NCBI GenBank assembly: GCA_963796955.1
Contig: CAWCNJ010000003.1
Span: forward strand, 96,546-160,545
Reading direction: 5' to 3'
DNA length: 64,000 nt
DNA from: Endomicrobiales bacterium
GTDB taxonomy: Bacteria; Elusimicrobiota; Endomicrobiia; Endomicrobiales; JALOBY01
Shown here: one piece after another, positions 48,801 to 51,800 of the stretch
How the letters are laid out: each line of letters starts with the position of its first letter
How positions within the stretch are numbered: the stretch's first letter is position 1
Made by a program: the position numbers

Positions 48801-51800
48801 TATTCGGCGACGGCCGGCGGCGGCGAGTACGATGGGCCGCACTGTTATAAGAAAGACTATTCCTCTAACGTTAAGATCTGCACCAGCGTGCCGCATGCCG
48901 TGCCCGTGTATGATGCTCAGGGAAATGAAGTGATCTTTTTCATGAACTCGACCGCGAATTTTCCCGATTACGTCCAGTTCGTGCGGTGCGATAACGGCGC
49001 GGTGTTTCCGCTGTACAATCAGGCGAACCTCGGCTGGGATTCAGCGAACCTGCTGCATGCCGCGCCGGGGCTCTCAAAAAAAGGCTGGGGATTCGTTTCA
49101 ACGTATTCCATAGGCACCAGCCATACGTCCGACAAATGGGATTATAACCAGATATTCGCCTTCGAGCTCGACGAGACCAAGACCACATTGACCCCGGTAA
49201 AGCCGCGTATTTGGCGGGTGAGCTACACTCAGAATTTTCCTGCTTCCAGTTACTATTATAACCAGCCGAATGCTGCGATAACGAATGACGGACAGCGTAT
49301 CTACTGGGGCGCCAATTGGCGCGACAGCACGACGGGTAAAATGGAGGTTTACCGGGTTGACCTGCCTGCCACCTGGTATCAAGACTTTGGCGGCCAGCCC
49401 GCCGCCGCGAACAACGGTACGAATGGCGGGAACGGCACGGTGACGGGAACGGGGACCACACCGACAGGTGCAGGCACTGGCGGGGACACGGTTTCAGTCA
49501 TAGAAGGGGTAACACTATCCGCGAACACTATTAAAGTAATCGGTCCGGCCGGTTCTAAAGGCATAATAAATCCGAACAAAGGTGATATGGCGAAAATATA
49601 CTTCAAAGGCGCCGGCGCCGGCAGATACGAGTGCAGGGTCTTTTCTCTGACCGGCGCGATGGTGTGGGAAACCTCAATGGATTCTTCGGGAGTAGGCATG
49701 TTTGAATGGAAACCGCAGGATGCGGCCTCCGGGGGCTATGTAGTCTATGTGAAGGGCCCGGGCCTGAATGCAAAAGAAAAACTTGCCATAATCAAATAAG
49801 GATCCGGTGTTTACCTAATGCCGTAAATTCTTTACAAAATCAATACAATTTAATATAATTCACTTATGAAATTACGACGTATTTATGCCCTTGGACTATG
49901 TGTAATTGGCGTGTTCGTGCTTGCGCTTGCGCTGAACGCGTATGCTACGGCCGGACGGGTATTCGGGCGGTTCTCGAATAACGCAAAAATAATAATATTT
50001 ATAAACGAAACCGGCAACCTGGAAATTATTCGCGAGAAGCTCGTGAATATGGACGGGCTTGCGGGTTTTGATTTTGTCGGCAAGGACAAGATCGCGCAGG
50101 ACGCAGATCTGATAAGCCCGACGATCAAGGAGATCCTTGAGACCGGCGAGAATCCCTTCACGCCGTATTATGTGGTCAAACCCAGGCGTACCACGCTGGC
50201 CAGCTATGAGGCCGTGGTCAAAGAATTAAAAGGCATCAAGGGCGCGGAAGATATCCGCTACGACGCTGAACTGGTTGAGATGACCCAGAACCTGGCGCGT
50301 TTCCTGCGCATTTACCGGCTTTCCGTGAAGGCGGCGCTGGCAGGCTGCATAGGTCTGATGGCGCTCTTTATCATCCTGCAAAATCTGTCCGGAAAATTTT
50401 CCGCCCGTAAGTACGGGCTGTACGCAGCGCTGGGGCTGGCCGCCGGCCTGGCCGGGACCGGGCTGTATTATTGGGTAGCCCGCAGCTCTATTATTTCGGT
50501 CGTCACTCAGTTGTCGCTCAAGCATATGATGATAACGGCGCCCGCGGGCCTGGTGATGGCGCTATTGCTCGCCGGTCTCGACAGCGAATAATGCGCACGT
50601 TCCTGGCAGGTCTGTTCATTATCAGTGCGGCCTTGCCCTTGTACGGTAAAGACACTCATTCCGTATCTCAGCAGATCCAGGCGAACACGAACGATCTTAA
50701 AAAGATACATAAAAATATCAACGATAAAAAGGCCGAGAAAGAACGGGCCGCGTTGGAAGAAAAGAAAATACGTACTGAGATAAAAAAGCTGGAGAAAGAG
50801 CTGGACCGTTTGCAAAGCGAAGGCGAGAGGACGCGCCGGCAGATAATCAAGGCCGAAAAGAGCCTGGCAGACGCGCAAAGACGGTATCAGGCGGCCACAG
50901 GTGTTAAAGAACAGCGGCACAGTTCTTTGAGCAGTGAAGTTGATTACTGGTACCGCGCGCATTTAACCAATGCGACCCTTTCACCGGACATAGCCGGAGA
51001 TGAACTCAGGCTGCAGGCGATCAAACAGAAAGGCCTCATGCTGAGCGACGCAAAGACCAAAGAGCAGATGATCGCCCAGTACATGGTAAAGCTGCGTAAG
51101 GCCCAGCAAAATCTTCTGGAACTTAAAAATAAGCAGGAGCTGACGCTTTCCCGCCAGATGCAGGTGAAAAAAGATAAGCAGGAATACCTGAAAACGGCGA
51201 CCGGCCGCCGCGTAGTAGCTGAAGAAGAGATCGCGCGGTTGTCTGAATCGGCCCGGGCGCTTGAGAATATGATCAACGACCTGATCTCTGAAAAGAAAAA
51301 GAGCGAGGCGGAACTTGCCGCCGCACAGGCGGAGAAGGCAAAACATAAACATAGGGGCACCCCTCAGATACGCAGCGCCATGCGCCATATCCCCTGGCCG
51401 GTAACGGGCAAGGTAGTGGCGAATTTCGGCAAAAGCAAGCATCCGGACCTTGATACGATCGTGATAAGCAACGGTATAAAGATCGAAGCAGGGCCAGAAG
51501 CGGAAATAAAATGCGTTGATAAAGGCGAAATAATATACAGCGGTGAATTCAGGGCCTACGGAAAGATGATCATTGTCGATCACCATAGCGAATTTTACAG
51601 CATCTACGGGCAGCTGGGAACGTTGAAGGTTGAAGAAGGCAACAAAGTAAAACAGGGTGACGTGCTGGGAGCGCTCGGCAAGGCTGAACATGTATTGTAT
51701 TTTGAAGTGCGCACGGGCAACCAGCCGGAAGACCCGTTGCCATGGCTTAAGTAAAACGTAATTCGATCACAGGAGAGTGTATGAAAAAGTGGATCACCGG

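Follow-up and report, generated by a model that had tools for sequence, protein, structure and literature searches.

The window analysed here (i.e. the whole 64-kb stretch of DNA, recovered from a member of the Elusimicrobiota) carries an unlabelled gene directly ahead of envC, and raises the question of how EnvC could be governed by an FtsX for which neither the helices that dock its ATPase nor the ATPase itself can be found. The coupling helix of FtsX inserts into FtsE, and in E. coli the elbow-helix region binds FtsA (PMC11627006). EnvC's LytM domain has been described as being released by a symmetric compression of the coiled-coil tip (PMC13716388), and what ATP contributes is under dispute: activation follows from ATP binding in P. 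aeruginosa and E. coli and from its hydrolysis in M. tuberculosis, and V. cholerae requires neither in vitro (summarised in PMC11139282). FtsEX-EnvC of V. cholerae activates AmiB in vitro in a nucleotide-free state (10.1101/2023.10.06.561269), a hydrolysis-dead FtsE rescues E. coli in part (the recruitment of EnvC without ATP hydrolysis being partly sufficient; PMC7343993), and E. coli FtsX-EnvC lacking FtsE does not raise the activity of AmiB (PMC11139282).

An FtsX gene ahead of envC

Compared with the available family models, the 241-aa protein scores below every cut-off: NCBIfam FtsX_Gneg (TIGR00439) matches it at E 6.2e-8 with 32.2 bits (cut-off 255; profile positions 28-186 of 292), NF038347 with 31.8 bits (cut-off 225) and Pfam FtsX_ECD (PF18075) at E 3.6e-4 with 21.5 bits (cut-off 23.5), while the Pfam search gave no match to PF02687. 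The NCBIfam FtsX cut-offs are also missed by canonical environmental FtsX. A profile of 91 relatives matched solved FtsX at E 2e-21 (with the top PDB matches all being FtsX chains), and the AlphaFold2 model of the protein (pLDDT 93.4, pTM 0.83) places TM1 at the N-terminus, followed by a Porter domain whose X-lobe consists of two helices and by helices at residues 134-175, 180-207 and 218-239, with a turn at 176-179; the best Foldseek match of this model was FtsX 8i6o (E 2.7e-10). Profile, model and Foldseek agree on the type-VII topology (TM1, periplasmic Porter domain, TM2-TM4). The X-lobe, which is FtsX-specific among type VII systems (PMC11627006), is present as well, its helices (residues 73-92) and NP[FL] motif matching the lobe of E. 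coli in the alignment (N96 is seen in 71 of the 91 rows, as is P97), and F45 and D133 align with Y114 and D207, two EnvC-contacting residues of E. coli FtsX (PMC13716388), with F in 77/91 and D in 68/91 rows. Judged by sequence and predicted fold, the gene is a true FtsX with TM1, periplasmic domain and TM2-4, as the earlier note had proposed, and an annotation gap is mended: such proteins fall below every family cut-off and are mostly annotated as hypothetical.

The TAA stop codon of ftsX overlaps the ATG of envC (Table 1), and with 66 bp between ftsX and the gene upstream, there is no space for an ftsE remnant. The sigma-70-like promoter, whose end lies 6 nt from the ftsX start codon, suggests that the ftsX transcript is leaderless and, together with an in-frame stop 5 codons upstream, excludes a longer N-terminus or a mis-called start. 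As in E. coli, where envC is followed by yibQ, a YibQ-like gene lies after envC in the window, along with a gene for an S41 protease.

Table 1. Positions of the features discussed, counted from the first nucleotide of the window
Feature	Position	Strand	Remarks
Terminator-like hairpin, end of upstream gene	49805..49823	+	weak: 1 seen against 0.7 expected in shuffles
Sigma-70-like promoter	49831..49859	+	11/12 consensus, 17-nt spacer; 6 nt 5' of the ftsX ATG; 2 sites seen against 0.8 expected
Short ftsX	49866..50591	+	241 aa: TM1, periplasmic domain, TM2-TM4; elbow and coupling helices absent
Periplasmic domain of FtsX	49983..50264	+	about residues 40-133
X-lobe and conserved NP[FL] motif, FtsX-specific EnvC-binding lobe	50082..50162	+	residues 73-99; helices 73-83 and 85-92; in predicted interface
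TM2-TM3 turn at the usual coupling-helix site	50391..50402	+	residues 176-179
envC	50591..51754	+	387 aa counted from the ATG at the ftsX stop; has a signal peptide, a coiled coil and a LytM domain without zinc
EnvC coiled-coil tip	50918..51043	+	residues 110-151; clamped by the periplasmic domains of two FtsX in the predicted complex
Conserved EnvC heptads aligned with the E. coli restraining-arm region	51224..51286	+	about residues 212-232; arm boundaries inferred from heptad count
S41 carboxy-terminal protease of the CtpA/Prc type (neighbour in the operon)	51781..53049	+	
Divergent polysaccharide deacetylase (YibQ-like)	53060..54184	+	

Docking helices and the search for FtsE

The stretch from E. 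coli D207 to F281 (which spans the coupling helix) comprises 75 residues in 38/38 canonical FtsX and 59 in the FtsX of the window, i.e. 16 fewer; in the short FtsX of its relatives the median is likewise 59, with 66 of 67 falling between 45 and 66 and one truncated copy having 21. These relatives were drawn from the 70 envC loci that we examined (out of 113 matches in 121 genomes), of which 67 carry short FtsX upstream as a gene of its own, 2 are fusions and 1 (genome G003) has none; one row of the locus alignment (L060) proved to be a wrong ORF, from a genome that has the fusion, and was dropped from later counts. The coupling-helix motif, as defined by us, occurs in 68/73 canonical FtsX, 0/67 short, 0/12 fused and 3/33 fusobacterial ones, so that the loss of this helix claimed before is borne out. 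The accompanying claim, that the N-terminal cytoplasmic part has gone too, holds for the window (the elbow helix that precedes TM1 is absent, TM1 beginning at about residue 6 with the stop codon 5 codons upstream of the start) and needs narrowing for the phylum, as some relatives retain a polar N-terminal tail; the residues before the TM1 anchor number 15 in the median in short FtsX (range 4-128, with ORF starts over-called) versus 27 in canonical ones. Similarly, the ‘4-residue turn’ reported between TM2 and TM3 is correct as a DSSP turn (residues 176-179), whereas the cytoplasmic part that separates the hydrophobic segments, as read from the sequence, is about 10-12 residues long. The TM2-TM3 loop of short FtsX is poorly conserved. 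A still shorter, two-TM family of FtsX was considered and rejected: the 186-aa copy of genome G062 is atypical, as in its family 9 of 11 genomes match the profile over almost its entire length, and in one more genome of that family FtsX is cut by the contig end.

No protein exceeded the FtsE cut-off (TIGR02673) in 401 genomes of the phylum with 7 candidates scored in each (best 228 bits), in 71 genomes with up to 36 scored (the five best matches being unchanged from those obtained with 7), or in 15 genomes with all candidates scored; the earlier statement that no FtsE is found in the phylum sample is thereby upheld. By the same test, 7 of 14 control genomes passed. An ABC ATPase was present in 76/80 canonical ftsX loci of other phyla (gathered by a scan with a single FtsX protein as query), and 16 of the 76 FtsE fetched from them, taken as a control for scoring, reached 251-305 bits with FtsE as best family, 14 of the 16 passing the TIGR02673 cut-off. 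In a FastTree phylogeny, 39 FtsE (38 of the 76 fetched and that of E. coli) formed one clade (support 0.965), within which none of 78 Elusimicrobiota ATPases fell; these came from 81 loci, three of which (L093, L100 and L164) were left out of the tree and read separately.

The earlier note had left room for a very divergent FtsE or a borrowed ATPase, and both now look unlikely. Among the top stand-alone ATPases, 17/17 have LolD or MacB as their best-scoring family, and most of them adjoin their own permease; those read near 215-225 bits, considered as divergent FtsE, were set aside as MetN-like or MacB-like with permeases of their own. In genomes G021 (99% complete) and G064 (one contig), every listed ABC ATPase could be assigned to another family from its best hit (13 proteins were scanned), its neighbours or its length. 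The only type VII ATPases of G021 are a MacB fusion and a truncated LolD next to a split lolC/E permease gene, neither of them an intact stand-alone one, and its ftsX-envC is intact. None of the 70 envC loci contains an FtsE-like frame, 30 of them reaching only about 0.7 kb above ftsX. Motif-dead FtsE relics score about 100 bits, a depth that was searched in G000, G021 and G064 and at the 70 loci; the search that detects such a relic in G463 finds none in G021. The genome from which the window derives is 81% complete and shows neither ftsA (present in 40/40 others) nor a long AmiB-type amidase; as it cannot itself support the absence of FtsE, this absence rests on the other genomes.

EnvC, its predicted complex and the spread of the pair

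The best match of the EnvC protein is solved EnvC (E 3.8e-20), and E. coli EnvC in turn matches the profile of this family from one end to the other (E 2.9e-41 over 33-417); a signal peptide, a long coiled coil of antiparallel type and a C-terminal LytM domain are all present. The zinc ligands of LytM are lost (Y in 62/62 at the position of E. coli Y401, K or R in 57/62 at that of the Asp ligand), at positions which we assigned partly from M23 motifs. Heptads aligned with the restraining arm are among the better-conserved parts of the coiled coil (L217 is found in 90% or more of 62 rows), and a conserved, lineage-specific loop insert adjoins the LytM groove. The monomer model of EnvC has an unbroken helix at 134-252 and is extended (rmsd 31.8 Å over 216 residues in comparison to the docked 6TPI), and its pTM of 0.56 means that this form says little on the docking of the arm either way. 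Amidase_3 was found in 61/61 genomes, and its long form has an insert of about 40 residues (6/6 sequences read), which we take to be akin to the blocking helix of AmiB/C.

The binding of EnvC, left unmodelled in the earlier note, has now been modelled: the predicted complex of two FtsX and one EnvC scored 0.68, as compared to 0.00 for the best of 3 controls, by a measure whose mark is reached by 116/157 solved pairs and 2/215 mismatched ones. Contacts are shared between the runs to at least 96% (with a partner pLDDT of 78 or more), and EnvC residues 110-151 lie between the periplasmic domains of the two FtsX; the equivalent of this clamped tip in E. coli is 114-160 (PMC11627006). Since the score may have been reached through resemblance to solved FtsX-EnvC complexes, it shows likeness and not binding, and FtsX may still grip EnvC.

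Short FtsX was detected by profile search in 378/401 genomes of the phylum and in 283/293 of those of good quality (reduced ones included). The occurrence of a second, canonical FtsX elsewhere was considered and rejected, each listed genome having a single match to the short-FtsX profile, and in 5 profile-negative genomes tested, TIGR00439 matched only C-terminal parts of longer permeases. Family f26 shows neither FtsX nor full-length EnvC (4/4 genomes), and in G003 envC is present and no FtsX was detected. The short FtsX proteins are very divergent (mean column identity 19%). A related-locus search with EnvC as query found nothing, and word-indexed protein searches gave 5 and 13 matches. The upstream neighbours of ftsX vary (glgA-like, csaB-like, scpB-like and others, as named from N-terminal sequences), and no partner gene is conserved at the ftsX-envC loci.

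In one family, ftsX and envC form a single ORF in 12 of 16 matched genomes (2 have them separate and 2 broken or cut), an observation that does not depend on the predicted complex and lends support to a pairing of the two proteins. An assembly artefact was discarded as its cause, the fusion being seen in 12 genomes of 8 genera. In the fused protein, a basic linker and a fifth hydrophobic stretch are kept, as is a signal-peptidase-like site; ATG, GTG and TTG are missing from the 28 codons examined around the linker in 5 of the 12, and the other 7 have such a codon within TM4 or right at the hydrophobic stretch. The fusion is thus most likely made as one polypeptide, which is perhaps cleaved.

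A fusobacterial parallel and the competing explanations

Wu and colleagues reportedly stated in their abstract of 2018 that FtsX and EnvC of F. nucleatum interact. The ftsX-envC locus of this species has been described as lacking ftsE, and mutants of either gene form chains, the pair being needed for cell separation (PMC5915739). It is the one locus, in one species, at which an FtsE-less FtsX-EnvC has so far been known; the authors speculated on a substitute ABC ATPase (a cation-ABC ATPase, HMPREF0397_1681, came down with FtsX), and the parts of their paper covered here contain no discussion of the coupling helix (PMC5915739). This precedent, absent from the earlier note, makes the Elusimicrobiota case less surprising.

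Across the Fusobacteriota, an FtsX-like match was present in 83/101 genomes and FtsE over the cut-off in 0/101, nor was the latter found in any of 4 Fusobacterium genomes for which all candidates were scored. Out of 33 fusobacterial loci, 9 carry an ATPase next to ftsX and 24 do not. Of the 9, 3 are near-intact (194-247 bits with our own FtsE profile, their loci retaining the coupling-helix motif), 2 show partial decay and 4 are devoid of Walker A, FtsE being the best family in 4/4 of those tested. Read as a series, these loci would lead from an intact FtsE through one with dead ATPase motifs to none, in an order of events that we infer; the loss of ATPase motifs before that of the gene is what would be expected if an FtsX-EnvC core can work without ATP. 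The F. nucleatum pair resembles that of the Elusimicrobiota in the adjacency of ftsX and envC, the lack of ftsE at the locus and the decay of the coupling-helix motif. Fusobacterial FtsX nevertheless keeps the length of the loop (span 71-77 in 33 proteins, versus the canonical 75) and usually the N-terminal segment, so that a docking surface could remain there, whereas the Elusimicrobiota have deleted the docking site; moreover, some Fusobacteriota keep an intact or motif-dead FtsE, and none was found in the Elusimicrobiota sampled.

With the FtsEX-EnvC-AmiA/B systems of E. coli, P. aeruginosa and V. cholerae (6TPI, 8HD0, 8I6O, 8TZK), the Elusimicrobiota pair shares the four-TM FtsX with its Porter domain and X-lobe, the 2:1 clamp on the coiled-coil tip of EnvC (modelled here), the zinc-less LytM domain and an amidase with a regulatory insert; it differs in having no FtsE, no coupling helix and no elbow helix or FtsA-binding N-terminus, and, in one family, in encoding FtsX-EnvC as one ORF. 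The type VII ABC systems MacB and LolCDE share the four-TM fold and the Porter domain (Foldseek E 1e-4 to 1e-2), but lack the X-lobe, have larger periplasmic domains and work with a coupled ATPase. The pair is thus FtsEX-EnvC-like on its periplasmic side, yet it is no FtsEX, as three defining features fail (coupling helix, elbow helix and FtsE).

We consider it likely that FtsX and EnvC constitute an ATPase-free core in these bacteria, be it as a passive clamp or as a switch with a replaced input. For the passive version, in which the core would serve the separation of daughter cells, we judge the chances to be slightly better than even: an FtsX dimer would clamp the EnvC coiled-coil tip (as in the model) and hold EnvC upright, in or near its released state, and control of the AmiB-type amidase would lie chiefly in the place and time at which the components come together at the septum, and not in an ATP cycle. 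Given that both known routes to the Z ring (FtsE to FtsZ, and FtsX N-terminus to FtsA) are gone, recruitment to the septum would take place through the membrane or the periplasm. An ATPase-free module is favoured by the deletion of the docking helix in all 67 separate copies, the retention of FtsX (378/401), the fusion (12/16) and the missing FtsE (0/401), and also by the nucleotide-free activation in V. cholerae, the partial rescue in E. coli and the fusobacterial parallel. The score of the predicted complex (subject to its likeness to solved ones), the joint absence of FtsX and full-length EnvC from family f26, the presence of Amidase_3 in 61/61 genomes and the intact ftsX-envC of G021 beside its damaged lol genes point the same way. 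What counts against a clamp that is passive is the inactivity of E. coli FtsX-EnvC without FtsE, the existence of a genome (G003) with envC and no FtsX, and the conservation of the arm heptads, which suggests that EnvC autoinhibition persists and needs a trigger. The same heptads speak for an ATPase-free switch, in which a divisome membrane protein, the geometry of the septal wall or a periplasmic partner would move the FtsX dimer and free the arm, as do the persistent autoinhibition of E. coli FtsX-EnvC on its own (PMC11139282), the retention of TM3 and TM4 in nearly all copies though the coupling helix is gone, and the conserved lineage-specific insert by the LytM groove of EnvC; since the locus has no conserved partner gene (its upstream neighbours vary), no candidate trigger was found and the TM2-TM3 loop is poorly conserved, we regard such a switch as possible but rather unlikely.

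That the pair has ceased to activate a division amidase, with FtsX as a leftover anchor or EnvC serving the S41 protease or other hydrolases, would accord with the strong divergence of FtsX (19% mean column identity), with G003 and with the S41 protease gene that follows envC both there and in the window. It seems improbable in view of a single-copy FtsX in 283/293 good-quality genomes (reduced ones among them), conserved interface residues, the ftsX-envC fusion, the regulatory insert kept by the long amidase and the chaining of the F. nucleatum mutants (PMC5915739). More improbable still is that some other ABC ATPase, be it LolD, of MacB type or unrelated, is borrowed, or that FtsX works with an unrecognised FtsE relic: the docking helix is physically absent, the top ATPases are LolD or MacB in 17/17 cases and 0/78 lie in the FtsE clade (0.965), and neither an FtsE-like frame at the 70 loci (30 of which extend about 0.7 kb) nor a relic or intact stand-alone type VII ATPase in G021 was found, although a cation-ABC ATPase did come down with F. 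nucleatum FtsX (PMC5915739) and relics of about 100 bits, such as exist in Fusobacteriota, would slip under the thresholds of the 401-, 71- and 15-genome searches.

In the Elusimicrobiota, the cell wall is therefore probably split with no need for the ATP switch that textbooks describe, and the way in which EnvC would be switched on is one that we infer. The earlier note's interpretation is thus supported in part: it holds for the reduced FtsX and the missing FtsE of the genomes sampled, while an ATP-independent activation of the amidase through this pair would be the putative step. Returning to the ATPase-free core, we find it fairly probable that ATP coupling is a dispensable layer upon FtsX2-EnvC that has been shed more than once, wholly in Elusimicrobiota (by deletion of the motor gene and the docking helices, to be followed in one family by gene fusion) and stepwise in Fusobacteriota. 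If this is true, the Elusimicrobiota FtsX is a type VII ‘ABC’ membrane subunit that naturally does without a motor, activates wall hydrolysis and reaches the septum along a route not described so far. In the literature searched (mostly without subscription papers or reviews of FtsEX distribution) we found no account of a phylum-wide loss of FtsE, a deletion of the docking helices, an ftsX-envC fusion or a decay series. A phylum devoid of both motor and docking site represents a natural experiment that separates the clamping of EnvC from the ATP cycle, and the series observed in Fusobacteriota brings the same question about ATP into a genetically tractable species.

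Fusion of ftsX with envC and genomes without the full pair

In the family of G090 (an Elusimicrobiota genome), FtsX and EnvC were found to be encoded by a single open reading frame of 634-680 aa in 12 of the 16 genomes, in which the signal peptide of EnvC is retained as a fifth hydrophobic segment. Neither FtsX nor a full-length EnvC was found in another family of the phylum, f26 (genomes G094, G130, G272 and G285), and in G003 no FtsX was detected and EnvC is short (339 aa). Separately, we observed broken transport genes in the reduced genome G021: lolD is shortened to 178 aa, the lolC/E gene lies in two pieces (229 and 136 aa) and an mlaF-like gene is broken too, which reflects either gene decay or sequencing error.

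FtsE and FtsX in other phyla

The FtsE adjoining ftsX-envC in Fusobacteriota occurs in graded states (i.e. near-intact, partly decayed, Walker-A-less and absent), and the coupling-helix motif of FtsX decays in step with it. We also observed FtsX-like clusters (257-292 aa) in the ESM Atlas, most commonly from Cloacimonadota, Bacteroidota and Campylobacterota; PF02687, the FtsX family model, is absent from most of them, and these clusters are possible candidates for further losses.

Genes and features of the window

The DUF5693 protein is encoded in two overlapping ORFs (361 and 214 aa), which match positions 1-307 and 400-606 of the profile, respectively. In relatives, one ORF spanning about 480-600 aa occupies the corresponding position; the split is probably a frameshift. 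The slot between csaB and ftsX, whose gene content differs in other genomes, holds a secreted-looking protein of 583 aa that matches no Pfam family and shows a weak hit of the T9SS type at its C-terminus. Further downstream lie what we take, from sequence resemblance, to be a MotA/ExbB-like gene and then two MotB/OmpA-like genes. Within EnvC, a conserved LytM-domain loop (about residues 280-293), which is 4 residues shorter in E. coli, adjoins the presumed amidase-binding groove.

Positions of the features (L numbers, loci fetched from the compared genomes)
Feature	Genome	Position or loci
DUF5693 ORFs	window	45271-46973
583-aa protein	window	48048-49799
EnvC LytM loop	window	51400-51480
MotA/ExbB-like and MotB/OmpA-like genes	window	58077-60306
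FtsX-EnvC fusion	G090 family	L059:3214-5151, L131-L137, L139, L141, L142, L144, L145
Shortened lolD	G021	L352, C1 about 940-943 kb
Split lolC/E	G021	L352
Broken mlaF-like gene	G021	L359
FtsE series, Fusobacteriota	G472, G451, G484, G503, G464, G502, G463, G489, G487	L331-L350
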